From positions 746 to 64,745 of the IMG/VR virus record IMGVR_UViG_3300045988_162375: DNA of 64,000 bases. One strand, 5' to 3'. A model generated the notes under the pieces. The model was not told the DNA's origin and did not search any database. It worked only from the letters and a program-made list of their open reading frames with translations. This document shows positions 11,572 to 42,986 of the stretch, one piece after another (position 1 is the first letter of the stretch; each line of letters begins with the position of its first letter). The stretch comes from a virus. The position numbers and the translations under genes are program-made.

Positions 11572-11644
11572 AGAGCTATAGTATTTATAGGTAAGTACAC
11601 TACTCTGAGGAGTAGAGATAGAGGTTCAAATCCTCTTAGCTCTC
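11572..11644 (+). tRNA. tRNA-like gene with a non-canonical 6-nt anticodon loop (possible pseudogene)
   Basis: Perfect acceptor AGAGCTA/TAGCTCT and T arm AGAGG-TTCAAAT-CCTCT, but anticodon arm CTACT-CTGAGG-AGTAG has a 6-nt loop. Confidence 0.3.
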
Positions 11645-12205
11645 CAAGACTTTTAAAATTTGTATAATGGAAAAAGTGACACAAAATGTACCTGATACAG
11701 GTTGTACAGATCCTGATGAATTCGTGAATGACCCTTGTATCGAAGCCATAGAGGATGAAGAACTTCTTAACATAGAATAATATGTACATAATAACTTTAA
11801 TTTTAGGAATTGTAGGTGTCGTCCTTCTTGCTTTTGCAATCAGGGAAGATGAAGATGATCGAGCCTTCCCGTTGGGAATACTATCAGTAGTCTCTCTGAT
11901 ATGCTCAGTGATGCTCTGGTGCTATACTGACACCAAGCATGAACGAGAACAACCCTTAACAACAATTTCAACTTTTGTTGAGGAGCATTCTCAATATCTC
12001 TCTCCAACTACAGTGAGAACTATAAGTGCAGCACCTATTCGGAAAATACCTGATGGATGTTTCGTATATAATGTTATTCTGGTTGATCAGGATTCTATGT
12101 ATACGTATTCTGCAGTTCTGGACCCTGAGAACATTGAGGTAGTTAATTTTATTCTCGAAGAATCTATTCCTCGACTCGAAAATCATCAAAATAAAAAAAT
12201 AAACA

Positions 12206-13905: not shown

Positions 13906-14641
13906 ATTCTTTCTGAATAATAGAAATATTGCTATATGTATTCTTCTGAATACTGTAGTGATATTTCTGTTGTCCTTTCATCGATTCCAACATGTCCTTT
14001 TGCCACTAGATGTGGCGTTTACCATATTCTTTATAATAGAGATGATTGTCAAGATTAGATGTCTTGGTAAATTATTCTTTAAGGATAAAGAATGTGTTTT
14101 TGATTTATTAATTGTTGTAGTTTCATCAATCCCATTATTTGGGTTATTCAGTTTAGATTGGATTCAAGTAATGCGATTGACTCGAATATTTAAGAGTCTT
14201 CGATTGTTTGAATTGATTCCTAATTACAAAAAGCTACTCATCAATTTTAGGTTAGTAATTCGAAGTTGCATTGGAATCTTAGTAGGATTATCTATTTTGA
14301 TTTTTCTATTATCAATTATTCTGTCTTCTTTATATGGAAATATAGTTCCAGAGTATTTTGGAAATCCCCTTGAAAGTATTTATTCAGTTTTCCGATTGTT
14401 TTCTATTGAGGGTTGGTATGATATTCCAAATGCTATTGCTGAGCGTAGTTCCTATGTAATGGGATATTTATCTAAGTTTTTCTTATCAGGTATAGTTCTT
14501 GTTTTTGGTATATTCGGAATGGGATTTGTATCATCTATGTTTATTGATGAGGTAACTTCAGATAATAATGATGAAGTTCTACAACGATTAAGTAAGTTAG
14601 AAGAAATTTTAAAGAAAATACAAGAAAATGGCACAACTTAA
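13856..14641 (+). CDS. 6TM voltage-gated cation channel (BacNaV/NaChBac-like) with C-terminal coiled coil
   Basis: Six hydrophobic segments; S4-like helix with basic residues every third position (MRLTRIFKSLRLFEL); pore-like FRLFSIEGWYD resembling the TLESW filter; start may be a later ATG. Confidence 0.5.
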   Translation: MVTKPLPSPSTISGVSKFFLNNRNIAICILLNTVVIFLLSFHRFQHVLLPLDVAFTIFFIIEMIVKIRCLGKLFFKDKECVFDLLIVVVSSIPLFGLFSLDWIQVMRLTRIFKSLRLFELIPNYKKLLINFRLVIRSCIGILVGLSILIFLLSIILSSLYGNIVPEYFGNPLESIYSVFRLFSIEGWYDIPNAIAERSSYVMGYLSKFFLSGIVLVFGIFGMGFVSSMFIDEVTSDNNDEVLQRLSKLEEILKKIQENGTT

Positions 14642-16154
14642 GCCAGGATTCAAAGTAGTCCTGATCATGGTCGCTGTAATTGCAGCATTTTTCGTAATCA
14701 AAGCCGTCGTCCCTTCCTCCTCGTCGTCGGGATCATCCTCTACTTCGGGTCTCGGCGACATCTTCGGAGGAAAACCGACCATCAACATCGGAGTTAACAC
14801 GTATGCGGGGTTTGCTCCCATTGTGTGGATTAATGGTGGTCTTCGTCCCAATGACGAGTCTATCCTGACTAAGGAATATGGCATTCGTGCCAATATCATT
14901 ATCCAAGATGATTTTGTTGCTGGACGTAACGCTTTCCTGAATGGGGATATCGACCTTATTTATTGTACTACGGATGTATTGGCCGTAGAGATGGGTGAAG
15001 GTTCCGCAATGAACAGTGCTAAGTATGTAATGATGCTTAACCGTTCTCAGGGGGCAGATGCAATGGTAGTTACCAAGAATATTCGTACCGTTGCAGATCT
15101 TAAGGGTAAAAAGATTGCAGTAGCTGAAGGAACTGCATCTCATACTCTTCTTCTGAATATTCTTGAAACAAACGGGATCAGTCAGCATGACGTAACACTT
15201 GTGAAAGTTGATAACGGTGGTGCTGCAGCTGACACATTCAAAGCAGGTCAGGTAGATGCTTGTGTTACATGGGCACCTGATGACCAGGCTTGTGTAGATG
15301 CTATTCCTGGTTCGAGAGTCCTCGTTTCAACCAAACATGCAAAAGACCTTGTAACAGATGGTCTTGTAGGAAAGGCAGAGTGGCTGGATAAGAATCATAA
15401 CGATGTTAAAAAACTTATTTCTGCAATTCTGTATGCAAATTCGAAGTTGAATCATGATCCTGCAACTGTAAAGGAAGCATCAAAGATTTTTGCAAAAGCG
15501 TTCGGTACTGACCCTGAGTTTGCTGAAATTGGATGTAGCAATATCTGGTTTGCAACTCTGGGAGATGAAGAGAATTTCTTTGGCATAACTTCTGATTATA
15601 TGGGAATGAAGGCTGAGGAGATCTATTCAAAGATGGCTCGGACCTATGCTAATCTTGGACTTACTAAGAGTCCTCTGGGTTGGCGTAAGGTATCGGATAT
15701 GTCGTTCATCGAGGAGCTTTCCAATGAGGGTACTGTACAAGGCAATCAGGCTCCTCAACCCGCAGTTAAGTTCTCTGCTGTAACATCAGAAGTCAGGGAA
15801 AAACAGGCAATTTCTAATAAGAAGTTGACTATTAATTTCCCTGTCAATGGTGACATCCTCGACAATGATGCTCGAGCTCTTATTGATCGAGAGTTTGTTC
15901 CGATTGCTAAGCAGTTCAACAACGCACGTGTTCGTATTGAAGGTAACACTGACAATACGGGTAATCGTGCGTACAACGAGTCTCTTTCATCTCGACGGGC
16001 TCAGGCTGTAGCTAATTATTTAATTAATGACTACGGTTTTGATCCCAATCGATTTATCATCGTTGGTAACGGTCCTAAGAATGCTATCAATGATGGTGTT
16101 CAGGGTTCCAATATCAACTATCGAACTACTGATTTCATGCTCGTAACTGAGTAG
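14628..16154 (+). CDS. ABC transporter substrate-binding protein (NitT/TauT-type) fused to a C-terminal OmpA-like domain
   Basis: 508 aa; N-terminal TM anchor and Ser-rich linker, SBP-like core, C-terminal NTDNTGNRAYNESLSSRRAQAV OmpA-family motif. Confidence 0.55.
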   Translation: MAQLKPGFKVVLIMVAVIAAFFVIKAVVPSSSSSGSSSTSGLGDIFGGKPTINIGVNTYAGFAPIVWINGGLRPNDESILTKEYGIRANIIIQDDFVAGRNAFLNGDIDLIYCTTDVLAVEMGEGSAMNSAKYVMMLNRSQGADAMVVTKNIRTVADLKGKKIAVAEGTASHTLLLNILETNGISQHDVTLVKVDNGGAAADTFKAGQVDACVTWAPDDQACVDAIPGSRVLVSTKHAKDLVTDGLVGKAEWLDKNHNDVKKLISAILYANSKLNHDPATVKEASKIFAKAFGTDPEFAEIGCSNIWFATLGDEENFFGITSDYMGMKAEEIYSKMARTYANLGLTKSPLGWRKVSDMSFIEELSNEGTVQGNQAPQPAVKFSAVTSEVREKQAISNKKLTINFPVNGDILDNDARALIDREFVPIAKQFNNARVRIEGNTDNTGNRAYNESLSSRRAQAVANYLINDYGFDPNRFIIVGNGPKNAINDGVQGSNINYRTTDFMLVTE

Positions 16155-16155
16155 T

Positions 16156-16992
16156 ATGCAGTTGTTCAAAATGGGTGGGACGATTACCCATAAACAAGCA
16201 TTGGCAACAGGTATCATAGGAGCAATAGTTCTGCTGCTTCTATGGTATCTAGTTACCATGTCAGGGGAAATCATTCGTCCTCAGATTTTACCGAATCCTA
16301 TAAATGTGCTCAAGGCATATCCAGATTTAATCTCTAACTCAGCCCTCTTTACCAATACTTGGTATACAGTAAAGCTGAACCTTATGGGATATTTCTATGC
16401 TTTAATCATTGCAATCCCTTTGGGCCTTATTATAGGATTGTTTCCTGTCACAAAAGCGTTGTTTGGTAAGTACTTTGATGCTCTTCGGTATCTTCCTATT
16501 CCTGCAGTGTCTGGTATTTTTATCGCAGCTATTGGCATAGGATTTGATATGAAGGCTAGTTTTCTTGCTTTCGGAATCATCATATACATTCTTCCTGTTG
16601 TTGTTCAACGAGTATCTGAACTTCAGAATCCCGCCAACGATAAGGATTATGTGTATTTACAAACCATTTCAACGTTAGGTGCAACAAACTGGCAGAAATT
16701 TCGATATGTTTATTTTCCTTATGTGATGCAGCGAGTTTCAACCGATGTAATCAATTTAACTGCGATTTCCTATACTTATATAGTAATTGCAGAAACTCTT
16801 AATAAAGAGGGTGGTATCGGTGCACTGATAAATATAATGAGTAGGCAGTCGAGAACTGCAGAAGTTTATGCACTTCTCTTCTTAATTATCGGTATTGGAA
16901 TACTCCAAGATGTCCTTCTAAAGAAATTGGATGTTGTACTTTTTCCTTCAAAGTACAACAAACCATCCATCAAATCCAAAATAATGAAATAA
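16156..16992 (+). CDS. ABC transporter permease (TauC/SsuC-like)
   Basis: 278 aa polytopic membrane protein immediately following the SBP gene. Confidence 0.6.
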   Translation: MQLFKMGGTITHKQALATGIIGAIVLLLLWYLVTMSGEIIRPQILPNPINVLKAYPDLISNSALFTNTWYTVKLNLMGYFYALIIAIPLGLIIGLFPVTKALFGKYFDALRYLPIPAVSGIFIAAIGIGFDMKASFLAFGIIIYILPVVVQRVSELQNPANDKDYVYLQTISTLGATNWQKFRYVYFPYVMQRVSTDVINLTAISYTYIVIAETLNKEGGIGALINIMSRQSRTAEVYALLFLIIGIGILQDVLLKKLDVVLFPSKYNKPSIKSKIMK

Positions 16993-16994
16993 GT

Positions 16995-17831
16995 ATGGGG
17001 CTCTTTGATGGTTTAACTGGATCCGTTCCAGTTCCCACATCTCGTTATGAGGCCGTGGATGTAATTAACTTAAGAAATCTTAACCAGTCTTTTGATACTC
17101 CTAAAGGAAAGTTCACTCTCTTTAAGGATTTCAGTCTGGATATAAAAGACTTCTCAGGAGAAGGGCAGTTTATCAGTATCTTAGGAAAGAGTGGTTGTGG
17201 TAAATCTCAACTGCTCAAAATCATCTCTGGGCTTACACAGCCAGATTCAGGTGAAGTTCTTGTCTATGGAAAGCCACAGACAGGAAAAATCCCTATGGTA
17301 TTTCAGCAGTATTCTTCATTTCCATGGATGTCAGTTCTTGACAATGTAAAACTTCCGCTTATTCTTCGAGGAGTTTCTGATAAAGAAGCTACAGAGAGGG
17401 CTATGGAAATGATCAAAATTGTAGGTCTGGAAGGTAATGAAACTAAATGGGGTCAGTATCCTGTGTTATCGGGAGGACAGCTTCAACGAGTTTCAATGGC
17501 GCGAGCCCTGGTTGCAGATAACAAAATTCTTTTGTTAGATGAAGCCACTGGTGCATTAGATATTGTTATGAAACGAGAGATTCAGAACACCATTTTGGAT
17601 ATCTATTATAACGCCAAATTCGATCCTACAATCCTCAATGTTACACATAGCATTGAGGAGGCTGTATATCTCTCAAATCGAATTTACATTTTAGCTCCTA
17701 ATCCCTGTAAAGTTCAGGCTGTCATTGATGTTAACTTTGACGGTAGGAGAACGGATGCAATTCGTCAAACTACAGCATTTGCAAATTATGTGAAACAAGT
17801 AGAACAAGTAATGTCAGAAACACATGAGTAA
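16995..17831 (+). CDS. ABC transporter ATP-binding protein
   Basis: Walker A GKSGCGKS, signature LSGGQLQRV, Walker B ILLLDEATGALD. Confidence 0.7.
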   Translation: MGLFDGLTGSVPVPTSRYEAVDVINLRNLNQSFDTPKGKFTLFKDFSLDIKDFSGEGQFISILGKSGCGKSQLLKIISGLTQPDSGEVLVYGKPQTGKIPMVFQQYSSFPWMSVLDNVKLPLILRGVSDKEATERAMEMIKIVGLEGNETKWGQYPVLSGGQLQRVSMARALVADNKILLLDEATGALDIVMKREIQNTILDIYYNAKFDPTILNVTHSIEEAVYLSNRIYILAPNPCKVQAVIDVNFDGRRTDAIRQTTAFANYVKQVEQVMSETHE

Positions 17832-32854: not shown

Positions 32855-32940
32855 CCCGACGCGGCTACGATGGTGGAGTGGCGCAGCACTGTAAATGCTG
32901 TACATCAGAAACTCATGAGGTTCGAATCCTCACGGCGGGA
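32855..32940 (+). tRNA. tRNA-Tyr(GTA), type II
   Basis: Anticodon arm CAGCA-CTGTAAA-TGCTG, 15-nt variable arm, T arm TGAGG-TTCGAAT-CCTCA, A73. Confidence 0.65.
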
Positions 32941-32956
32941 CTAATTTATATTGACA

Positions 32957-33426
32957 TGAAAATTGTAGATAATTTTATATTCTTCTGGGGAGGTTGGTTA
33001 AGTAACTTTCATCCTTGTAGAATAGTATTTGGCTCTAAAGTTTTTAAATCATCTGAACAGCTTTTTATGTATCTTAAAGCTTTGCATTTTGGTGATATAG
33101 AAACAGCAGAGAGGATTCTATTAGCAGAGACTCCAAAGGAAGCTAAAACCCTTGGTAGGGAGGTTAGAAACTTTGATGAAAAATCCTGGAATGAGGTTAA
33201 GATTCAGAAAATGTATCTTGCCTTGGAAGGTAAATTTAGCCAAAATAAAGATTTAATGGATAAACTTAAAGACCCAGCATTAAATGGGAAATTCTTTGTT
33301 GAAGCATCCCCCTTTGATAGAGTCTGGGGTATAGGCTATGATCAAGATCATGCACTTCAAAACCAATCAAATTGGGGAGAAAATCTACTTGGTAAGACTC
33401 TTACCTTTTACAGAGGATCTTTATAA
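32957..33426 (+). CDS. NADAR (YbiA-like) domain protein
   Basis: FFWGGWLSNFHPC...FKSSEQLFMYLKALHFGD...PKEAKTLGREV...ASPFDRVWGIGY match NADAR family conserved blocks; track start 32878 overlaps tRNA-Tyr, so start moved to ATG ~32957. Confidence 0.6.
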
Positions 33427-33433
33427 ACAATTT

Positions 33434-33470
33434 GCGGATATTGACATCGCTCAATATCCGCTTTATTTTT
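33434..33470 (+). terminator. Rho-independent terminator
   Basis: GCGGATATTGA-CATCGC-TCAATATCCGC followed by TTTATTTTT. Confidence 0.55.
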
Positions 33471-33483
33471 AAAACTTAATAAG

Positions 33484-35175
33484 ATGTTTGAAGCAAAAAA
33501 GAAAACATTATTTGCTGTTGATAGCAGTAAATCGGCATCTAAATCAGCCTTTATTCAGGCAGGATTAAAAACTGCAGCAGAAACCACTACAGGTAACGGT
33601 GGTAAAGCCTATTCCAGTACAGGGGATCCCTTCGTTGACCAGTTTGGTAGTACATCTAAGTACAGAGAGATTCGCCCATTTGCAGAAATTGCAAAAGATT
33701 GTGAAATTCTCTGGGCAGAAAATAAAGAAGATACTGTTAAATTTATCTTTTTCTTGCGAATGATTTGTCGTAAGATTAATGATAAAGAGTATGGTACCAA
33801 AGAAGCACAGAAGGGTTCTGAACTTCGTCATGAAGGTATTATGCGTCTCATCTGGCTGCATATCAAAGATAAAGAAGTGTTCTGGAAGAATGCTTGGTTG
33901 ATTCCCTTAGTGGGTTCTTGGAAAGATCTCTTCGTTATGCTTCGTTATGACTTAGTTTATAACGGCTGGGAACACCGAGTTCTGGATTGGCGCCGTTTTG
34001 CAGATCTGATTACTGCTGGCCTTAGTTCTGATTCCCAAACGAATCTTCTTCGTAAGTATCTTCCTCAGATCAAGGCACATTCCAAGTGTACTACAGTAGA
34101 GGCACAAGCAAATTGTATGATTGCAAAATGGCTGTGTTCAGAACTTTACGGTGCGTCAGGAGCAAAGACAGATGCTGAAAAGTATCAGGTATATCGTTCT
34201 TATGCAAAGATGAAAGCCGCAGGGACAGCACATAGCTGGCAACAGCTTATTTCAAAGCAACGATATACAGAGATTGACTTTGATAAGATTCATGGTCGTG
34301 CCTTAAACCTTCTTGTACACTCCAAGTTCTTAGAGAATCATAATCTCAAAGAGAAGTATCAGGAATGGATAGGAGCTCCAGAGACAAAGAAGGTGAAGTA
34401 CACAGGTTTTGTACATGAGCTCTTTAAACCTATTTGTAACACTGCTCCTTATAATATAGAGCAGCATATCAAAGATACTATTAATAAGCAGTTTATGACT
34501 CTTGTTAATAAGTGTAAGGAAGAGGGCAATACTACAGATCTAATTGTAGTACGTGATACTTCTGGTTCAATGGGTGCAGAAGCAACTGGAACTTCCATGT
34601 CTTGTTACAATGTAGGTAAGGCAATTGCTCTGTATTTCTCTTACTTCTTGAGAGGAAGGTTTCAAAATGCATGGATTGAGTTCAACTCGAAAGCTATGAT
34701 GCATGAGTGGAAAGGAGAAACTCCTCTGGAAAAATGGTTTAATGACCATTCAGGGTACTATGGAAGTACAAACTTTGAGGGTGTTATTAACCTCTTTACT
34801 CAGTTGAAACTTGAAGGTGTTCCAGAAGAGGAATTTCCTAAAGGAATTCTTTGTATCAGTGATTGTGAGTTTGATGCTTCAAGTCTGAATAAGACTTCAG
34901 TTGAAAGAGTTCATGATACATTGACAGCTGCAGGATTTTCTAAAGAGTATGTTGATAATTTTGTCATTTGCCTTTGGAATTTGAGAAATGATTACTACGG
35001 ACATAATGTACAAAATCGTGTTCCATTCCAAACTTATGGTGACGTCAAGAATGTCTACTATATGTCTGGATATTCAGCACAGATTGTATCTTTCTTAAAT
35101 GGGAAGGTGCAGACTACACGGGATCTGTTTGATGAGGCTATGAATCAAGAGATTCTGTCTCTCATTAAGATGTAA
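33484..35175 (+). CDS. vWA-domain protein with N-terminal helical domain (Ro60/TROVE-like or DUF2828-like architecture)
   Basis: 563 aa; C-terminal MIDAS-type motif LIVVRDTSGSMGAEATG; large N-terminal alpha-rich domain. Confidence 0.45.
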   Translation: MFEAKKKTLFAVDSSKSASKSAFIQAGLKTAAETTTGNGGKAYSSTGDPFVDQFGSTSKYREIRPFAEIAKDCEILWAENKEDTVKFIFFLRMICRKINDKEYGTKEAQKGSELRHEGIMRLIWLHIKDKEVFWKNAWLIPLVGSWKDLFVMLRYDLVYNGWEHRVLDWRRFADLITAGLSSDSQTNLLRKYLPQIKAHSKCTTVEAQANCMIAKWLCSELYGASGAKTDAEKYQVYRSYAKMKAAGTAHSWQQLISKQRYTEIDFDKIHGRALNLLVHSKFLENHNLKEKYQEWIGAPETKKVKYTGFVHELFKPICNTAPYNIEQHIKDTINKQFMTLVNKCKEEGNTTDLIVVRDTSGSMGAEATGTSMSCYNVGKAIALYFSYFLRGRFQNAWIEFNSKAMMHEWKGETPLEKWFNDHSGYYGSTNFEGVINLFTQLKLEGVPEEEFPKGILCISDCEFDASSLNKTSVERVHDTLTAAGFSKEYVDNFVICLWNLRNDYYGHNVQNRVPFQTYGDVKNVYYMSGYSAQIVSFLNGKVQTTRDLFDEAMNQEILSLIKM

Positions 35176-35183
35176 ACTTAATA

Positions 35184-35215
35184 GGCTCTAGTAGAAATAC
35201 TAGAGCCTTTTTATT
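35184..35215 (+). terminator. Rho-independent terminator
   Basis: GGCTCTAGTA-GAAA-TACTAGAGCC followed by TTTTTATT. Confidence 0.55.
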
Positions 35216-35645
35216 AATAATCTAATTATGGGTAAGTACCTTAAAGATTATCAAATTCCTGATTATTGCGAGGAGGATAAACCTAGAATGCCAAAGCGGC
35301 CTAAGAAGTTTAAAGACCAAGAGGGAGGAAAACCTTTAGTAAAGAAAAAGTTCAAGCGATGAAGAGATGATTCTTAAGAGTATTTAGAAGGTTTAATGAA
35401 CCATCAACTGATAGTTCAAAAGAATTTCCTAAAAAAGTAATTGACTTAGAACAATTTGACGATGTATTCATAGTTACTAATAAAAAAGTATATAAGGCCT
35501 GGGTTATGAAAAGAACCAGTAGACTTTTACAGATTTTTATTTGGGAGTCTAAAAAGGAGGTAATTATAAATACAATTGGACAAGCTAATTCTAGTGTTAT
35601 TCCTTTTGGCAAGGATAGCTATTTAATTATAAATAAAAAAGATAT

Positions 35646-36227
35646 ATGCGATTACTTGTAGTAGTTGATATGCAAGAAGACTTCATCAGAGGTGCATTAA
35701 CGGTTCCTGGTGCTGAAGAAATAATTTCTCCTATAGAGAAATTAGTTAAAGAGTATATAACAGCAGATGATGCTGTCCTTTTTACTCGGGATACTCATTA
35801 TGAGCATAGTGATACTAGGGGATTCAGCTATGCTATGACTCGTGAAGGTAGAAATCTTCCAATTCTTCATTGCGTTTGTGGAACTGAAGGTCATAAGCTT
35901 ATTAAGGAATTTAAGCCTTATCTTCGTTCCTGCTATGTAATGGATAAACTAAATAGGTTTGGATTTATCCAGGATGAGTTTAATGATGCCAAGATAGATG
36001 ATGGAGAATATTTATTCGACATCGCTGATTGCATTACAGAAATTACTTTGGTTGGTGTAGTAACTAATCTTTGTGTTATTTCATGTGCTGTAAGTTTTCA
36101 GCAAATATTCCCTGATGCAGATATCATCATAGATGCTTCCTGCTGTCGTTCCAATAACAATGAACTTCATAACAAAGCTTTAGATGTTATGGAGGGTTTA
36201 CAAATGACTATAATTAATCGTTATTAA
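35646..36227 (+). CDS. pncA: nicotinamidase / isochorismatase-family cysteine hydrolase (PncA-like)
   Basis: N-terminal LLVVVDMQEDF (catalytic Asp), TNLCVISC (catalytic Cys), 193 aa. Confidence 0.55.
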   Translation: MRLLVVVDMQEDFIRGALTVPGAEEIISPIEKLVKEYITADDAVLFTRDTHYEHSDTRGFSYAMTREGRNLPILHCVCGTEGHKLIKEFKPYLRSCYVMDKLNRFGFIQDEFNDAKIDDGEYLFDIADCITEITLVGVVTNLCVISCAVSFQQIFPDADIIIDASCCRSNNNELHNKALDVMEGLQMTIINRY

Positions 36228-36228
36228 T

Positions 36229-37713
36229 ATGTTTAAACCTTGTGGAGCTCTACTGACTGATTTTTATAAGCAGGATCACCAGCGTCAATATGACCCTAGC
36301 ATCACTAAGGTAGTTTCTTACTATGTACCTCGTAAAACTAGGATTCCTGAATTTGATAAGGTAGTAGTTTTTGGTATTCAAGCATTTATTGAGGAGTATC
36401 TGATTGAGTACATGAATGAAACTTTCTTTAACCGTCCCTTAGAAGAAGTTATTGCAGAATATGAATTTGTGATTTCTTCTACTATGGGAGCAGACCGTGT
36501 TAACTCGGATAAAATTAAAAACCTTCATGAATTAGGATATCTTCCTATCGAAATTTGGGCACTTCCTGAGGGATATAAAGTAGGAATGAATATCCCCTGT
36601 ATCGAGATTTCTAATACTAATCCAGAATTTGCATGGTGTACTAATTTCATTGAAACCTTGATGCTCTCTGAGCTTTGGTATCCAATGTGTGTTGCAACTG
36701 CTGTAACTAAATATCGTAGTATCGTAAATGATTTTTATTCTAAAACTTCTGATATTTCTGGTCGTTCTGCTATTTCTGAGTTCGGATTTAGAAGTTTAGT
36801 TGGACTTCATGGTGCTATTAAAGCTTCGTGTGGATTTTTGCTCTCTTTTAATAAGACTGCGACTATTCCTGGCATTATGTATGCTTCAAAGTATTATCAT
36901 ACCCCAATGTCTGTAGTAGGTGGAGGTATGGCTTCTACTGAGCACTCCGTAATGTGTAGTTCTGCTGCCATTGATGGGGATGAAAAAGTTATGATTCGAC
37001 GCCTCCTTACTGAGGTCTATCCTAATGGATCATTCTCTATGGTAAGTGATTCCTATGATTACTGGAATGTTGTCGATGAGATTCTCCCATCTCTTAAGGA
37101 AGAAATTCTCAGTAGAAATGGTACTTTGTATGTTCGTGGTGACTCTGGAGATCCTGTAGAAATTGTAACTGAGACGGTTTTTTCTCTTTGGGAGACTTTT
37201 GGAGGCACTGTCAACTCTAAGGGATATAAAGTCTTAGACCCTCATGTTCGAGCTTTATATGGTGATGGCATCACTCAGTTACGTGCAAAACAGATTTATC
37301 AGATTTTGTATGATAAAGGATTCTCTGCAGAGAATGTTGCACTTGGTGCAGGAGGATTTTCCATGCTTTCTTACATGGATGAGTTTGGGAATGTAGATAT
37401 GTTCTCTCGCGATACATTTAATGTAGCAATTAAATGCAGCTATGTAGAACAAACCATTGATGGAAAAACTAAATCTATCATGGTCTACAAAGATCCTAAA
37501 ACGGATTCAGGAATGAAGAAATCCCACAAAGGATGTTGTGCTGTTTTCTACAACCATGTAACTGGTGAGTTTGATTGTGATGAAGGTATGACACTGAAAG
37601 AAGCTCATAATGAGCCTTTCAATTTACTTCGTCCTATCTTTTCAGATGGAAAAATGAGAGAGCAAACTACTCTCACAGAAATTCGTAGAACTCTTTGGAA
37701 CGGGAAATTCTAA
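36229..37713 (+). CDS. NAMPT/NAPRT-family phosphoribosyltransferase (NadV or PncB, or Namat-like)
   Basis: 494 aa; N-terminal LLTDFYKQDHQRQYDP characteristic of the nicotinamide/nicotinate PRTase family. Confidence 0.55.
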   Translation: MFKPCGALLTDFYKQDHQRQYDPSITKVVSYYVPRKTRIPEFDKVVVFGIQAFIEEYLIEYMNETFFNRPLEEVIAEYEFVISSTMGADRVNSDKIKNLHELGYLPIEIWALPEGYKVGMNIPCIEISNTNPEFAWCTNFIETLMLSELWYPMCVATAVTKYRSIVNDFYSKTSDISGRSAISEFGFRSLVGLHGAIKASCGFLLSFNKTATIPGIMYASKYYHTPMSVVGGGMASTEHSVMCSSAAIDGDEKVMIRRLLTEVYPNGSFSMVSDSYDYWNVVDEILPSLKEEILSRNGTLYVRGDSGDPVEIVTETVFSLWETFGGTVNSKGYKVLDPHVRALYGDGITQLRAKQIYQILYDKGFSAENVALGAGGFSMLSYMDEFGNVDMFSRDTFNVAIKCSYVEQTIDGKTKSIMVYKDPKTDSGMKKSHKGCCAVFYNHVTGEFDCDEGMTLKEAHNEPFNLLRPIFSDGKMREQTTLTEIRRTLWNGKF

Positions 37714-38483
37714 TGAAAGAAGTATATGAAGGAATAGTTTCCTTTCTTAAGAATTATCAAGAACGTACCCATGTGAAAGGGTATGTTCTTGGTATTTCTG
37801 GAGGAAAGGATTCTACTGTAGTGGCCAAATTATTGGTAGATTCTATAGGTAAGGAAAATGTATTAGGTGTGCTAATGCCTAATGGTAAGCAAGCTGATAT
37901 TGAGGATAGTTATACAGTATGTGACTTTCTTGATATTAACTATACTGTTGTTAATATAGAAAATGCGTTTGATGAACTTATTCATCAAATTGATGTTTCG
38001 AAAATAACTACAGTGGAAGGGAATGAAGAAAACATTCCAGTAACGGAAAAGGCTCTTACTAATGTTCCTCCTCGTATTCGTATGACTATTCTATATACTA
38101 TAGCTCAGTCTGTAGGATATCGAGTAGCGGGGACTAGTAATGCTTCAGAATTATTTATTGGTTGGGGAACTAAATGGGGAGATTTGGCATCTGATATTAA
38201 TCCTATTTCTCAATTAACATGTTCTGAAGTTATTTCTTTAGGAGACTATATGGGACTCCCATATGATCTTATACATAAGACTCCTGCAGATGGATTAACA
38301 GGAAAGTCTGATGAAGAAAATTTTGGTTTTACATATAAAGAACTTGACACTCTTATTGTAAAGCAGCGAAATCTTACTTGCACAGGTAGAATACAATGTG
38401 CTTTTACTGAACAAGAATTAAAAATCTTAAAATTACATGAAGCTGCGTATCACAAAGATCATGTAATTAAAATACATTATTAA
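37695..38483 (+). CDS. nadE: NH3-dependent NAD+ synthetase (NadE-like PP-loop ATP pyrophosphatase)
   Basis: PP-loop YVLGISGGKDSTVVAKLL; 262 aa. Confidence 0.6.
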   Translation: MEREILMKEVYEGIVSFLKNYQERTHVKGYVLGISGGKDSTVVAKLLVDSIGKENVLGVLMPNGKQADIEDSYTVCDFLDINYTVVNIENAFDELIHQIDVSKITTVEGNEENIPVTEKALTNVPPRIRMTILYTIAQSVGYRVAGTSNASELFIGWGTKWGDLASDINPISQLTCSEVISLGDYMGLPYDLIHKTPADGLTGKSDEENFGFTYKELDTLIVKQRNLTCTGRIQCAFTEQELKILKLHEAAYHKDHVIKIHY

Positions 38484-38484
38484 T

Positions 38485-39375
38485 ATGGGAAGCGGATCAT
38501 GGAGTTCTAACACATATAAAGCTTTTGCTGATAGCTATACTAAAAAATCCAGAGAAGAAATCTTTCATCAAAGATCTCTACACGAAGAAATGGATCTTAC
38601 AAAAAGTAAGACGCATATTCGAGAATCTAGAGATTCTGAGGAACACCCAGAATCTCTTCCAGTTTTCATTGCATTAGATGAAACTGGTTCAATGGGCTCA
38701 ATTCCTGATAAGATGATCAGGGATTATCTTCCGAAGTTAATGGATTCTATTATTGATTCTATTGGAGTTAAACACCCTCAAATTCTTTTTATGGGAGTAG
38801 GAGATCATGAATGTGATTACTGCCCGTGTCAGGTAGGTCAATTCGAATCTTCAACTGTTGCAATTAATCAATGTCTCTCTAAAATCTATTTGGAGGGTCG
38901 TGGTGGAGGTAATAGTGGAGAATCCTACTTACTTCCTTGGATTATTGCAGGAAATCACACGTCAATTGATAGCTGGGAAAAGCGAAAGCAAAAAGGATTC
39001 CTTTTTACAGTTGGTGATGAACCTACTTTGACAAGAATAAGTAGGGGAACTTTGGCATCCCTCACTGGAATGGAGTATGAGCGTGATTATACCTGGCAGG
39101 AGGCTTATGAACTTGCCTGTGAGAAATATCATGTGTTTCATATCCATGTTCGACATGGAAGTGAACATTATGATGAGGTAGTAGCTAAACAAATGAAAGA
39201 AATTCTTAGAGAAAACTTTATTGTGTGTAAACCTGATGAAGTTGTAGAAGCCATTTGTGAAGCTATGGGTAAAACTCTAAAAGGTAGCTCTTCAGTAATT
39301 GAAGAGGTTTCTGCAGAAAAAACTGTAGAAAATACAGAATCAAAACCTAATATATTTGACATACATCGACGATAA
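38485..39375 (+). CDS. hypothetical protein, possible vWA-like fold
   Basis: 296 aa; motif VFIALDETGSMGS resembles a MIDAS variant. Confidence 0.3.
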   Translation: MGSGSWSSNTYKAFADSYTKKSREEIFHQRSLHEEMDLTKSKTHIRESRDSEEHPESLPVFIALDETGSMGSIPDKMIRDYLPKLMDSIIDSIGVKHPQILFMGVGDHECDYCPCQVGQFESSTVAINQCLSKIYLEGRGGGNSGESYLLPWIIAGNHTSIDSWEKRKQKGFLFTVGDEPTLTRISRGTLASLTGMEYERDYTWQEAYELACEKYHVFHIHVRHGSEHYDEVVAKQMKEILRENFIVCKPDEVVEAICEAMGKTLKGSSSVIEEVSAEKTVENTESKPNIFDIHRR

Positions 39376-40469
39376 TGTATAATATTGTAGTGGGTTGTAC
39401 GTTTGGCGACGAGGGTAAGGGTCAAGTGACTCATGCCCTTTGTTGCGACGCTAAAAGAAAGCGTTTAAAACCTCTGGTTGTTAGATTTTCTGGAGGGCAT
39501 CAAGCAGGGCACACAGTAACTACTTCATCTGGAACAATGCATATATTTTCTTGCTTTGGATCTGGAACATTTGCTGAAGCACCTACCTATTGGATGAAGC
39601 AATGTGTTATGGATCCACTACAATGGATGCGGGAACGAGAGGAGTTGGATTTCTTAGGATGTAATATCCCTATCCAATATTTTGATCCATATGTACAAGT
39701 AACAACTCCTTTTGACGTAATGCTGAATTCTGAAAGGAGTAAAGGTTTTACAGTAGGAAAAGGGATATGGGAGACTGTTCAGAGACAAAGAGAAGGACTA
39801 GCTTTATATGTAAAAGATTTAGCTTTTCCTCAAGTTGTAAAAATGAAGCTCCGATTAATTAGAGAATGGGCGGAAGATAGACTCCAGTTTAAGGAAACTT
39901 ATTCAAGATTTGCTCATGTTTTCGATAACTTAGATTCTTTAGTACATACTTATTGTAAGATTTTTTATCCCAATATAGTATTGGAGGATACGTTATCTAA
40001 ATTAGCATGGAAAGAAAAGACTTCTGTGATATTTGAGGGTTCTCAAGGAGTACTTTTGGACCCTAATATTGGATTTTCACATGAATATACTACCCCACTT
40101 CCATGTTGTCCATCGTGGGACAATCTCCCATTCTTTTTAAGTGATGATCAACTAATATTTAATTTTGTATATAGATCTTATTTAACAAGACATGGTAAAG
40201 GGCCTGTTGGAGGTTCTATATTCAAGGAGATTAATAATCCTTATGAAACAAATTTAAATAATCCTTTTCAAGGGGAATTTCAAACTTATGAATTCAATAA
40301 GGAATTAGTCTTGTATGGAATTGATCATGTTAAATCACACTTTAATCCTGAATATAAGGTAAGGTTGATTGAAACATGTTGTGACATATGTGCAGGACAT
40401 GACTTAGGAATCCCTTATAATTACTCTATCAAAACCTGCAAAAAGAATTTTGACTCTGTATGCAAATAA
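39375..40469 (+). CDS. Adenylosuccinate synthetase homolog, short form (PurA-like, or possibly PurZ-like)
   Basis: N-terminal VGCTFGDEGKGQV and VVRFSGGHQAGHTV match the PurA P-loop/GDP-binding signatures; 364 aa, shorter than bacterial PurA (~430 aa). Confidence 0.55.
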   Translation: MYNIVVGCTFGDEGKGQVTHALCCDAKRKRLKPLVVRFSGGHQAGHTVTTSSGTMHIFSCFGSGTFAEAPTYWMKQCVMDPLQWMREREELDFLGCNIPIQYFDPYVQVTTPFDVMLNSERSKGFTVGKGIWETVQRQREGLALYVKDLAFPQVVKMKLRLIREWAEDRLQFKETYSRFAHVFDNLDSLVHTYCKIFYPNIVLEDTLSKLAWKEKTSVIFEGSQGVLLDPNIGFSHEYTTPLPCCPSWDNLPFFLSDDQLIFNFVYRSYLTRHGKGPVGGSIFKEINNPYETNLNNPFQGEFQTYEFNKELVLYGIDHVKSHFNPEYKVRLIETCCDICAGHDLGIPYNYSIKTCKKNFDSVCK

Positions 40470-41281
40470 TTAACTTTTTATACCCAGAAAAGTCAGAAAT
40501 AAAGTATCGAATTGATACTTATCCTGATTCTCAATCTCATCTTGTACTTGAGTCTGAAATGGATAGACGAAAGTCTTTGTCGATATATACTAGACTGTCC
40601 AATTTGAATGATATTTGGATCCTAATGCAATTAGCTGATATTTGTCATCGTCAAGGTATCCAGATTTCCTTTTTACGAATAGCTTATTTATTTGCAGCAC
40701 GAACTGATAGATTATTTTCTTTTAACGAAGCATTAGATTTGGAGCTTGTTAAAAAATGTCTTATCTTTGTACAAGCAGATCAAATTCTAATATTAGATCT
40801 TCATTCTAATCGTTTAATTGTAGAAGGAATAGGTGATAATGATTGGCCTACATTTTTTACCTTAAACCCAGGTTTTAATATTCCAGAGAGTATTTTATTC
40901 CCTGATGAAGGCGCTTATCATCGTTACAGTGAGCTTTTAGACTTTAATATAAAATATCGTACTACAACGTATGTTGCTACAAAGCATAGGATCTCAAGGG
41001 ATAAGTTAGAGGTAAAATTACCTTCTGAAATAAAGCCAAATACTTCTATTCTAGTTTTTGATGATTTATGTGATGGTGGGGGAACTTTCTTTGCAATTCA
41101 TAAAGCATTACAAGATATGGGAGTAACTGATGTGCATTTACGTGTTACGCATGCTATCCAAAAAGAACCTTTAGTAAAGTTATCAAAACTTTACAAAACA
41201 ATAACAATTACCAATTCTTATAAGGATTGGGATAAAGAAGAACTTCCAAACAATATAAAAGTAATAAGAGTTTATGAATAA
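40460..41281 (+). CDS. Ribose-phosphate pyrophosphokinase (Prs) family protein; possibly an ADPR-PP synthetase-like enzyme
   Basis: Prs motifs LRIAYLFAARTDR (cf. PYFGYARQDR), DLHS, LFPDEGA, ILVFDDLCDGGGT (PRPP-binding loop). Confidence 0.55.
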   Translation: MQIINFLYPEKSEIKYRIDTYPDSQSHLVLESEMDRRKSLSIYTRLSNLNDIWILMQLADICHRQGIQISFLRIAYLFAARTDRLFSFNEALDLELVKKCLIFVQADQILILDLHSNRLIVEGIGDNDWPTFFTLNPGFNIPESILFPDEGAYHRYSELLDFNIKYRTTTYVATKHRISRDKLEVKLPSEIKPNTSILVFDDLCDGGGTFFAIHKALQDMGVTDVHLRVTHAIQKEPLVKLSKLYKTITITNSYKDWDKEELPNNIKVIRVYE

Positions 41282-41624
41282 ATTTAATGAAATTCTGAGT
41301 GCTACTGGAACTGCGGTACTCAAGAAACGTGCTGAAATCATCAATGCTGATGCCCGCGAAGCAGCTAAGGATCAGGTTAATCTCATTGAGAAAGAGATTC
41401 GTCAGATTAAGTCCAAGATTATGAATCTGGAGGATCTGTCGATTAAATCGACCGAATCACTGGTTGTAGGTACGGATTTTAAGGCAGATGAGTGGGTAAC
41501 TCAGATGTTCAAGCTTCGTGATGACTTGCGCAACGCTGAAATCTGTCTGGAAATTGCTCAGAATATTTATAATGAGTATTTCACGGAACTTCCTGAAGTA
41601 GACTGTGATAAGAAAGCAGAATAG
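41274..41624 (+). CDS. hypothetical coiled-coil protein
   Basis: 116 aa. Confidence 0.3.
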   Translation: MNKFNEILSATGTAVLKKRAEIINADAREAAKDQVNLIEKEIRQIKSKIMNLEDLSIKSTESLVVGTDFKADEWVTQMFKLRDDLRNAEICLEIAQNIYNEYFTELPEVDCDKKAE

Positions 41625-41631
41625 CTTCATA

Positions 41632-41652
41632 GGCGGATTTACTCCGCCTTTT
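41632..41652 (+). terminator. Rho-independent terminator-like hairpin
   Basis: GGCGGA-TTTAC-TCCGCC followed by TTTTAA. Confidence 0.45.
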
Positions 41653-41654
41653 AA

Positions 41655-41728
41655 GGGCCCTTAGCTCAATTGAATAGAGCATCTGACTACGAATTAGAAG
41701 GTTACAGGTTTGAGTCCTGTAGGGCCCA
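41655..41728 (+). tRNA. tRNA-Arg(ACG)
   Basis: Acceptor GGGCCCT/AGGGCCC, D arm TAGCTCAATTGAATAGAGC, anticodon loop CTACGAA, T arm ACAGG-TTTGAGT-CCTGT. Confidence 0.75.
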
Positions 41729-41924
41729 CATATGAAAACTGTTTTATATAGAATACAATCAATTGAAGCCCCAGAAAATGAAGGGTTTCGGTATGGCTCA
41801 TTAAGAACACTATCTAAGACAAAGGTAGATGAAGAAATGTGCTTAAGGAATGAGTTTGGAAGTCATTATCTAATTAATGTTCCAGATTATTGAATTTGTG
41901 AGATTTTAAAAGAAATAGAAGAAG

Positions 41925-42986
41925 ATGATGTATAGTTTAGATGAAATAGGTATTTTACCTAGTTCAAAAGCCACGGATATTACAAGTCGTAGTGAGTGTA
42001 GTCCTTTAGGAGACTTAGGAACATATCCTATTTTTGTTTCTCCTATGACATCCGTTATTGATGAATCAAATTATCAACTTTTTACAAAGGCTGATGTGCT
42101 TCCAATTATTCCAAGACGTGTAGATAATTTACAGTTTAGACTTAATGCATGTAACCATGTTTGGTGTGCATTTAGTTTAAAGGAATTTGAAACATTCTTT
42201 TGTGAAGGAGAACCTTCTGATGAGTGTCCTCTGGTACTTATTGATATGGCTAATGGCCACATGAAGAAAATTTATGACCTGGTTAAGAAGGCTAAGGAAA
42301 AGTGGAGCACGATTATTATCATGGTAGGTAATATAGCTCATCCAGATCTTTATTGGGAATGCTATGATGCAGGGGTGGACTATGTTCGTGTAGGTATTGG
42401 AACTGGCAGTGTATGTACTACAGGAGTAAAAACTGGAGTACATGCTTCTATGGAATGGCTATTGCAACAATTAGTTAAGCGTCGATCCATGATTAAAGAG
42501 TCTCCTAAACCTAAAAAGGCTCCAAAGATTATCGCAGATGGAGGAATTTCTACAATAGATCGAGCTATAAAGTGTTTAGCTTTGGGCGCCGATTATGTAA
42601 TGATGGGTAAAATGTTTGCTCAATGTAACGAAGCTTGTGGGTATGTTAGAACAAAGTGGCCAGATGATAATGATACTATACTTAAATATTTTGCATCTTT
42701 AACTAAAGCAGAAAGTGATCGAATCATTGAAGTGTATCCTAAAGAGCGATTATACTACGGAATGGCAAGTGAACGTGGTCAAAAGGATATTTCAAACACT
42801 AAAAAGGCCGAAGAAGGAATTGAAATTTGGGTTCCTGTTGAATATACTCTTGAATCTTTACTTTCTCAATTTGATTCTGCATTAAGGTCTGCTATGTCTT
42901 ATACAGGATGTAGGACTCTTGAAGAATTCAAAAATGTAAAATGGGAGTATATGTCTCCCTCTGAAAGAAATGCTTATTACAAATAA
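41925..42986 (+). CDS. GMP reductase / IMP dehydrogenase-family enzyme (GuaC-like)
   Basis: 353 aa TIM-barrel; catalytic-Cys loop VGIGTGSVCTTGVKTG and C-terminal KIIADGGISTIDRAIKCLALGADYVMMGKMFA match the IMPDH/GMPR family. Confidence 0.55.
   Translation: MMYSLDEIGILPSSKATDITSRSECSPLGDLGTYPIFVSPMTSVIDESNYQLFTKADVLPIIPRRVDNLQFRLNACNHVWCAFSLKEFETFFCEGEPSDECPLVLIDMANGHMKKIYDLVKKAKEKWSTIIIMVGNIAHPDLYWECYDAGVDYVRVGIGTGSVCTTGVKTGVHASMEWLLQQLVKRRSMIKESPKPKKAPKIIADGGISTIDRAIKCLALGADYVMMGKMFAQCNEACGYVRTKWPDDNDTILKYFASLTKAESDRIIEVYPKERLYYGMASERGQKDISNTKKAEEGIEIWVPVEYTLESLLSQFDSALRSAMSYTGCRTLEEFKNVKWEYMSPSERNAYYK

Follow-up and report, generated by a model that had tools for sequence, protein, structure and literature searches.

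Several routes by which phages rebuild NAD+ have been described. In NARP1, Adps converts ADP-ribose (ADPR) and ATP to ADPR pyrophosphate (ADPR-PP), and Namat joins ADPR-PP to nicotinamide, giving NAD+ (Osterman et al. 2024). NARP2, from Vibrio phage KVP40, consists of a Nampt and a bifunctional Nmnat, and NARP3 of a PnuC-like transporter and a NadR-like bifunctional enzyme (PMC13464706). NadV, NadM, and NadR are also found in phages (PMC9503650), accessory RyDEP genes have been reported in NARP1 loci (10.64898/2026.05.28.727677), and aRES has been described as well (10.64898/2026.01.28.702374). Here we analyze an operon in a 64,000-nucleotide stretch of phage DNA (the window; positions 746 to 64,745 of IMG/VR record IMGVR_UViG_3300045988_162375), in which an Adps-like Prs homolog and a Namat-derived transferase of altered pocket, termed Ala type below, are encoded with a nicotinamidase (PncA) and an NH3-dependent NAD synthetase (NadE). 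We propose, with a probability of roughly 0.55, that the four enzymes form a NARP1-derived NAD+ reconstitution module that runs through deamidated intermediates.

Pathways of the NARP1 type are not restricted to phages, since nrtR-prs-nadV operons occur in Shewanella and Acinetobacter (Rodionov et al. 2008, PMC2330246) and bacterial NARP1 homologs have been reported (PMC12774641). The nrtR-prs-nadV operons are a cellular pairing of a second Prs paralog with a NadV-like gene, under the repressor NrtR, whose effector ADPR releases it from DNA (PMC2330246). They contain two enzyme genes only, however, with neither PncA nor NadE, and a pncA-adps-namat-nadE arrangement is not listed in that work. 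The nrtR-pncA-pncB-nadD-nadE operon of Clostridium acetobutylicum (PMC2330246) is the other close cellular counterpart; the new operon looks like this one with pncB and nadD swapped for adps and an Ala-type namat.

Results

The operon core is of the NARP1 type

Seven open reading frames (ORFs), each abutting or overlapping the next, occupy positions 35646 to 41624 of the + strand as a translationally coupled operon (Table 1). A reading of the letters alone, made without database searches (here, the sequence-only reading), had recognized a cluster of four NAD-related enzymes between 35646 and 41281, and all four were found there. It had also taken the NAMPT-like and Prs-like genes for the NARP1 pattern, and phylogenetic placement agrees: the two proteins fall in the Namat and Adps clades, and not with Prs, NadV, or PncB.

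The 494-aa transferase scored 438 bits against NCBIfam PRK09198 (cut-off, 405). Among solved structures it matched SPbetaL1 Namat (9w5x/9w5w; PMC12774641) with 375 bits, ahead of Haemophilus NadV (295 bits) and the human and Xanthomonas NAMPTs (∼195 to 200 bits). A fold search with its AlphaFold2 model (pLDDT 84) also ranked Namat first, with template modeling (TM) scores of 0.86 to 0.88, although the TM-scores to NAMPTs were nearly equal, so that structure alone does not discriminate. We built a neighbor-joining (NJ) tree of 157 sequences, in which the window protein and human NAMPT were joined by references from SPbetaL1, KVP40, and crAss-like cr85_1 and by the 150 top-ranking representatives, at 50% identity, of 1.8 billion proteins. 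Bootstrap values of 99 to 100 supported the split between all 154 Namat-like proteins and the two Nampts, those of KVP40 and human. Identity as a PncB-type nicotinate phosphoribosyltransferase (NaPRT) was ruled out, the protein belonging to the NAMPT/Namat family; the PncB-type enzyme of phage G, gp277, reached only 21 bits on the family profile.

The 273-aa Prs homolog scored 55 bits against TIGR01251 (cut-off, 113), with a weak Pfam Pribosyltran match. It shares its PHROG family with the validated SPbetaL1 Adps, which likewise falls below the Prs cut-offs. Its best phage matches, at 30 to 36% identity, are in crAss-like and Lak phages, and these stand among the Prs/Adps homologs in the tables of Osterman et al., where the crAss-like phages have a Namat homolog no more than 10 genes away and the Namat homologs of cr85_1 and Lak carry the label Adps-associated. 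An NJ tree of 99 sequences separated 96 phage Adps-like proteins from three cellular Prs references with a bootstrap value of 100. The 273-aa protein was sister to the crAss/Lak Adps (bootstrap, 99), which pair with canonical Namat. It carries the Adps-state motifs DLHS, PDEGAYHRY, TKHR, and DDLCDGGGTF; TKHR is the equivalent of K162, whose mutation inactivates Adps. The Namat-clade gene lies four genes from adps in one operon, within the limit of 10 genes used for NARP1, and as in that system the Prs-derived and NAMPT-derived enzymes are encoded close together in a phage. Given the two clade placements, we consider the core of the operon to be of the NARP1 type.

Membership of the other two phage systems was considered and rejected. 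NARP2 also relies on a phage NAMPT-family enzyme to rebuild NAD+, but the KVP40 Nampt lies outside the Namat clade and has the amide-site Asp and a GGGLLQ-type loop. NARP2 requires an NMNAT and has no Prs homolog, whereas a scan for the HIGH motif, with three seed proteins, detected no nucleotidyltransferase-like ORF (NadD, NMNAT, or NadR) in the window. The lack of a NadR-like ORF there also argues against NARP3, although no search was aimed at PnuC.

The best solved relative of the 193-aa protein is the yeast nicotinamidase Pnc1 (2h0r), and the alignment places all six active-site residues, the triad D8/K101/C143 and the metal ligands D49/H51/H75; with 27 bits against the curated PncA equivalog (cut-off, 174), it is a divergent member. 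NadE has the SGGxDS loop (GISGGKDS), scored 180 bits against TIGR00552 (cut-off, 63.65), and found NH3-dependent NAD synthetases as its top PDB matches.

The nicotinamide pocket of the Namat homolog is altered

D215 of SPbetaL1 Namat (D219 of human NAMPT) hydrogen-bonds the amide of nicotinamide (PMC12774641), whereas NaPRTases have Ser at the equivalent site, which is held to favor nicotinate (PMC4442680, PMC10907753). This residue is Ala in the window protein (FNKTATIP) and in all 120 of its closest homologs. An alignment of 275 family members shows Ala here in 147 sequences, Ser in 23, Asp in 100, Glu in 2, and Val in 1, and 2 have a gap; among the 169 relatives of the window protein (the Ala/Ser type) the residue is Ala in 86% and Ser in 14%. 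The canonical Namats sampled all have Asp or Glu. The window protein thus departs from NARP1 in lacking the amide-binding Asp. A second site changes in step: A242 is Ser in the window protein and in 99% of the Ala/Ser type, versus Ala in 98% of the Asp/Glu type. The NJ tree places the Ala/Ser proteins in a single clade within the Namat radiation, and residue state and clade correspond exactly.

The rest of the active site resembles that of NARP1, with the catalytic His and the ribose-phosphate contacts conserved. The adenine clamp is kept as R38 and F377 of the window protein. Across the Ala/Ser type, the R40 site is Arg in 95% and the F392 site Phe in 93%, where Nampts have Lys and Gly. These are two of the three residues that stack on adenine; outside the clamp and the two altered pocket sites, the residues that contact NAD+ in the Namat structure are kept as well.

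The SCH motif, which belongs to the adenine clamp, has diverged in the window subclade. The window protein reads GGFSM-lsymdefgnv-DMFSRD, with the position-3 Phe and the aromatic residue before SRD present. Insertions in the subclade range from 10 to ∼30 residues and are predicted to form a β-hairpin. Asp215 to Ala, Ala242 to Ser, and this insertion together distinguish the window enzyme from that of NARP1. Basal Ala/Ser-type proteins keep the Namat motif GSYTYQYNTRD, and the SCH motif is matched by P0140, P0147, P0152, and the enzyme of gut phage Phass-1, which is Ala type with a near-canonical motif (GIGAYTYQYVTRD). Separately, three canonical Namat homologs (P0160, P0193, and P0202) have a ∼300-aa insertion inside the motif (GSFCV...SHNTY-QMNTRD) that looks like an intein, and many other family representatives, 570 to 1100 aa long, have insertions near residue 314.

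PncA and NadE accompany the altered transferase

We fetched 80 IMG/VR loci with an Ala-type alignment, 80 with a canonical-Namat alignment, and several metagenomic contigs, and scored them with PncA, NadE, and Adps profiles over a span of 10 kb. In these sets, which are the top-scoring 80 of each scan and not random samples, PncA, NadE, and Adps all occurred within 10 kb in 82 of the 87 Ala-type viral and metagenomic loci (Adps in 84), and the loci without the full set were mostly truncated contigs. PncA or NadE was found in none of the 83 Asp/Glu-type loci, 77 of which had Adps. Clustering at 80% identity (single linkage, alignment based) left 17 of 18 Ala-type clusters with the set versus 0 of 67 (Fisher p = 6e-17); at 70% identity, the counts were 10 of 11 and 0 of 49. 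Bacterial genome loci had the full PncA-Adps-Namat-NadE set in 65 of 80 cases. The clustering of the four families is far beyond chance, and in place of the two genes of NARP1 the window module has four that are obligatorily linked.

The linkage extends to basal Ala-type proteins that have no SCH insertion: P0140, P0142, and P0152 stand in the same isochorismatase/Adps-like/Namat-like/NadE operon, with slightly varied order. Lineages differ in gene order, and the Adps sequences that partner Ala-type enzymes are polyphyletic within their clade, which indicates that the linkage has been maintained and is not just inherited synteny.

The sequence-only reading had rightly called the combination with PncA and NadE unusual, NadE homologs being rare in sequenced phages (44 of 50,697 records). 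Its view of the two enzymes as extra steps on a normal NARP1 does not hold, since both co-vary perfectly with loss of the nicotinamide-binding Asp. From this co-variation we predict that the base specificity has changed and that the pathway has another intermediate, nicotinate adenine dinucleotide (NaAD).

Proposed pathway and competing chemistries

From the gene content, the family and clade placements, the residue states, and the co-occurrence described above, we infer the following substrates and role. PncA would convert the nicotinamide released by NAD+ cleavage to nicotinate and NH3, and the Adps-type Prs homolog would form ADPR-PP and AMP from ADPR and ATP. The Ala-type Namat would then join nicotinate and ADPR-PP directly, yielding NaAD and pyrophosphate, and NadE would convert NaAD, ATP, and NH3 to NAD+, the NH3 from PncA balancing that used by NadE. 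In a phage, the module would sustain the NAD+ supply throughout infection, also where defenses deplete NAD+. Its predicted inputs, like those of NARP1, are the products of NADase defenses; the predicted product of the transferase, however, is NaAD and not NAD+, hence the need for NadE.

In outline this resembles the Preiss-Handler pathway (PncA-PncB-NadD-NadE), with a nicotinamidase first, NAD synthetase last, NaAD in between, and NrtR regulation of the cellular copies. It differs in that a PncB-type NaPRT and NadD were not found in the window, and an Adps-type Prs homolog and a Namat-derived enzyme would take their place with no adenylyltransferase needed. With ADPR-PP as the predicted ribosyl donor, the ADP-ribose skeleton would be recycled and not rebuilt from phosphoribosyl pyrophosphate (PRPP) and ATP. 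The sequence-only reading had held that a transferase using only nicotinate would indicate ordinary salvage. This criterion is too simple, as a reaction of nicotinate with ADPR-PP would differ from ordinary salvage.

The operon could nonetheless be Preiss-Handler salvage assembled from unusual parts, in which the Prs homolog makes PRPP, the Ala-type enzyme makes nicotinate mononucleotide (NaMN), a host NadD makes NaAD, and the phage NadE acts last. That pathway begins with PncA and ends with NadE, and host NadD would be available; NadD is essential and present in hosts. The change of Asp to Ala or Ser mirrors the Ser of true NaPRTases (PMC4442680, PMC10907753), and canonical Namat is still able to use PRPP in vitro (PMC12774641). 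We nevertheless regard this alternative as unlikely. Both proteins lie inside the ADPR-specific Adps and Namat clades and not with Prs and Nampt, and the R40/F392 clamp residues are conserved though needless for PRPP use. The scan that was run on the window detected no adenylyltransferase in 82 of the 87 Ala-type loci. The exceptions were L001/L002/L022 and L032/L033; a small CTP_transf_like gene adjoins NadE in L001, and a NadR-like gene is present in L032/L033, as the salvage explanation would have it. Adps is kept in ∼95% of Ala-type loci, whereas phage routes based on PRPP have an adenylyltransferase instead of a Prs homolog, as in NARP2 (Osterman 2024 preprint) and in three phages that we inspected. 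Bacillus phage G encodes an isochorismatase (PncA), a PncB-type NaPRT, NadD, and NadE, with no Prs homolog or Adps; Sinorhizobium phage Phosso encodes PncB, NMNAT, and NadE, with no Adps; and Xanthomonas phage X1 encodes a Nampt (Asp, GGGLL loop), NMNAT, and NadE. Descent from ADPR clades, the kept clamp residues, the retention of Adps, the lack of a detected adenylyltransferase, and the unlikeness to these phages together favor the ADPR-PP route.

A further alternative is that specificity has not switched at all: the Namat homolog would still use nicotinamide and ADPR-PP, and PncA and NadE would be a parallel booster acting through host PncB and NadD. In its favor, every catalytic and ribose-phosphate contact is conserved, the phospho-His and R306/D308 among them, and Ala at the Asp site costs one hydrogen bond and need not abolish nicotinamide binding. 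The association of D215A/S and A242S with PncA/NadE, however, is perfect in both directions over 250 loci, a pattern not readily accounted for by two independent halves, and a coexpressed nicotinamidase would compete for Namat's own substrate. We consider this explanation improbable, and the least probable of the chemistries discussed here.

Several points weigh against the deamidated ADPR-PP route that we prefer. Loss of the Asp is by itself no proof of nicotinate use. The published SCH motif is unmatched in the window protein, which has a 10-residue insertion and G-G-F-S-M for G-S-X-Phi-X; the adenine-stacking Y396 site cannot be aligned there, and use of ADPR-PP might be weakened. The missing phage adenylyltransferase is only suggestive, as host NadD could finish a PRPP-based route, and the subgroup of short NadE enzymes includes that of Francisella (3fiu, 108 bits), which amidates NaMN. 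The Ala/Ser clade has a bootstrap value of 59 in the NJ tree (68 for the insertion-bearing subclade) and essentially one origin, so the perfect association largely goes back to a single inherited event, and the co-occurrence statistics show stable maintenance and not many independent events. Both NJ trees used Kimura-corrected distances and few Nampt or Prs outgroups, and the human NAMPT, human PRPS1, and E. coli Prs sequences in them were entered by hand and not taken from a database; the Bacillus subtilis Prs sequence agrees with a PDB alignment. It is not evident what a deamidated route would gain, and NrtR-flanked chromosomal copies, described below, suggest housekeeping recycling over dedicated anti-defense.

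Distribution and biological role

The same module is present in Phass-1 (OQ749652.1), where it is annotated as a nicotinamidase, a ribose-phosphate pyrophosphokinase, a nicotinamide phosphoribosyltransferase, and two hypothetical proteins. When bacteria were scanned with one genome for each species, 347 relatives came up; the best 80 were all Ala type, and 65 of these had the compact operon. Carriers among the best 80 were mostly metagenome-assembled genomes of gut Clostridia, and they included the isolates Pseudoruminococcus massiliensis, Dysosmobacter segnis, and Hominicoprocola fusiformis. With the operon this frequent in gut Clostridia, the module is not phage specific, and its commonness on bacterial chromosomes with NrtR is a further difference from NARP1. 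The P. massiliensis operon (locus L229, 6611 to 12303) lies among genes for AgrB, a Tim44-like protein, and aspartate-semialdehyde dehydrogenase, followed by NrtR, and has a glutamine-dependent NadE of 648 aa in place of the short NH3-dependent enzyme. The Dysosmobacter copy is prophage-like in appearance.

NrtR-like genes stood beside the module in 47 of 80 genome loci versus 4 of 86 viral loci. Release of NrtR by ADPR fits a pathway that consumes ADPR. An NrtR-type Nudix/winged-helix regulator also flanks some viral copies (L087; L001, 6499 to 7206).

Whichever chemistry applies, the phage operon may have been borrowed from gut Firmicutes as a general auxiliary metabolic operon, increasing NAD+ supply or recycling ADPR in the course of infection, with no dedicated counter-defense role; we hold this to be possible, at somewhat less than even odds. 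The bacterial distribution is in its favor, as are the NrtR counts, the housekeeping setting and glutamine-dependent NadE of the P. massiliensis copy, and the other metabolic genes of the window, which encode an ABC importer, a nucleoside deoxyribosyltransferase, and PurA-like and GMP-reductase-like proteins. On the other side, canonical two-gene relatives overcame Thoeris, DSR1/2, SIR2-HerA, and SEFIR in experiments (Osterman 2024 preprint), the predicted substrates ADPR and nicotinamide are the exact products of those defenses, and a NADAR gene lies two genes upstream of the operon. Both roles can hold together. By analogy with canonical NARP1, a counter-defense role of the phage module is plausible, and the phage copy may serve this end or general NAD+ supply.

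Operon layout and neighboring genes

The window, part of a genome of ∼155 to 178 kb, is phage-like. It has 24 tRNA genes, nearly all its long ORFs are on the + strand, its PHROG matches include phage replication functions, and its proteins are 98 to 99% identical to those of IMG/VR viral contigs of 140 to 178 kb. A DNA search with positions 35000 to 42000 against 50,697 phage records gave short NAMPT and tRNA matches and nothing more, which indicates that there is no close sequenced phage relative. One of the tRNA calls (11572 to 11645) has an odd anticodon of two bases.

Table 1. Features of the NAD operon and its surroundings, in window coordinates
Feature	Position	Strand	Remarks
tRNA genes (n = 24)	8742-49602	all +	Most amino acids covered; three tRNA-Glu
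NADAR-domain protein	32878-33426	+	1.7e-40; ADP-ribose-processing N-glycosidase family; two genes 5' of the operon
Terminator-like hairpin	35183-35208	+	11-bp stem, then T run; closes the upstream DUF2828 gene; 5' boundary of the operon
PncA-like nicotinamidase, 193 aa	35646-36227	+	Pfam Isochorismatase, 1.3e-20
Ala-type Namat-derived transferase, 494 aa	36229-37713	+	Pfam NAPRTase and NAMPT_N
NH3-dependent NadE, ∼256 to 262 aa	37713-38483	+	Pfam NAD_synthase, 1.6e-54; no glutaminase domain
vWA-like protein, 296 aa	38485-39375	+	phrog_2971; MIDAS-like DETGS motif
Truncated divergent adenylosuccinate-synthetase-like (PurA-like) protein, 364 aa	39375-40469	+	Pfam Adenylsucc_synt, 9e-29; phrog_1211 (PurZ family)
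Adps-like Prs homolog, 273 aa	40460-41281	+	phrog_619; under every curated Prs cut-off
Uncharacterized protein, 116 aa	41274-41624	+	Translationally coupled to the operon end; kept in close relatives
GMP-reductase/IMPDH-like protein	41925-42986	+	GSVCTT catalytic-Cys motif; downstream of the operon, past tRNA-Arg

The sequence-only reading named the four enzymes correctly and overlooked the two genes between them, which encode the vWA-like and PurA-like proteins. For NadE, the ORF list gives a TTG start at 37695, but the ATG in Table 1 is likelier, overlapping the stop of the Namat-like gene as TAATG. The vWA-like gene is accessory, since some close relatives and all distant modules lack it, and the PurA-like gene accompanies the module in this phage lineage only. 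The PurA-like protein retains the GDEGKG P-loop, has lost the C-terminal third, and matches PurA structures in the PDB with ∼50 bits at best. Identity as PurZ, the enzyme of 2-aminoadenine genomes, was considered; the match is weak and N-terminal (27 bits; cut-off, 300), and the PDB matches included no PurZ structure. The gene is in any case not part of the module. Together with the GMP-reductase-like protein downstream, the PurA-like protein could convert G to A nucleotides, or it could be a PurZ-like enzyme. A site with 12 of 12 positions of the sigma-70 consensus (TTGACA-16 nt-TATAAT) lies at 39356 to 39383, at the end of the vWA-like gene and right before the PurA-like start, and may drive the PurA-like and Adps genes from within the operon. 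Sigma-70-like sites were not enriched across the scan (25 observed versus 28 expected), which is therefore uninformative on regulation.

The NADAR gene is kept in close relatives of the window phage and lies outside the conserved core; its product may supply ADPR or be an anti-defense neighbor. With it, within 32878 to 35175, stands a 563-aa DUF2828/DUF7788 TROVE-like vWA protein encoded directly 5' of the operon, and DUF2828 homologs occur ∼10 kb upstream of the module in some distant loci. A GMP-reductase/IMPDH-like gene adjoins the module in the distant relative L003 as well. There (15436 to 16697) the module is followed by genes for an ADP-ribosylglycohydrolase (PF03747) and a HAD-family protein, further ADPR-processing neighbors that are reminiscent of the accessory genes reported in NARP1 loci.

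An ABC importer is encoded at 14628 to 17831; besides a permease and an ATPase it has a substrate-binding protein, NMT1/THI5-like, to which an OmpA domain is fused. In at least three other lineages (L040, L063, L065, L072, L073, L075, L182, and L186), homologs of all three components are located 4 to 9 kb from the Ala-type module, and none were found in the 80 canonical-Namat loci. The importer may serve vitamin uptake, perhaps of niacin, linked to the module, or the proximity may be mere shared synteny. Other unusual phage cargo (13856 to 14641, 27904 to 28362, and 30701 to 32810) comprises an ion-transport-family membrane protein, a nucleoside 2-deoxyribosyltransferase, and a 537-aa SPFH/Band-7 (flotillin-like) protein with a small membrane protein gene before it.

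Discussion

We found no description of a four-gene, deamidated version of NARP1 in the searchable literature. Within that literature, which does not extend to subscription-only papers, work on NARP1 makes no mention of NadE, PncA, nicotinate, or a deamidated variant, and nothing relevant joined NARP1, Namat, or Adps with NadE, a nicotinamidase, NaAD, or a NARP4. Ala-type proteins such as that of Phass-1 were not found among those entries of the Osterman tables that could be searched.

The proposal can be extended to an unrecognized NAD+ recycling route, in which NaAD is made directly from nicotinate and ADPR-PP, with PncB and NadD both bypassed, and the combined switch of Asp to Ala or Ser and of Ala to Ser makes Namat a "nicotinate ADP-ribose transferase." This route would be widespread in gut Clostridia under NrtR and in large phages, where it may be a fourth reconstitution route against NADase immunity. 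We rate this fuller statement as evenly balanced.

If it is true, nicotinate + ADPR-PP → NaAD would be a new reaction and would place a new route on the map of NAD metabolism, accounting for a conserved four-gene operon whose members are now annotated as unrelated "salvage" genes. Taken with PncA and NadE neighbors, the residue at the Asp215 site would give a simple rule for dividing two functional classes, both of which probably go under the name NARP1/Namat at present. Predictions of NAD+ auxotrophy and niacin use would change for abundant gut Clostridia. In the conflict between phages and their hosts, the module would represent a further NAD+ reconstitution strategy, and its response to defenses or inhibitors aimed at nicotinamide-dependent NARP1 might differ.

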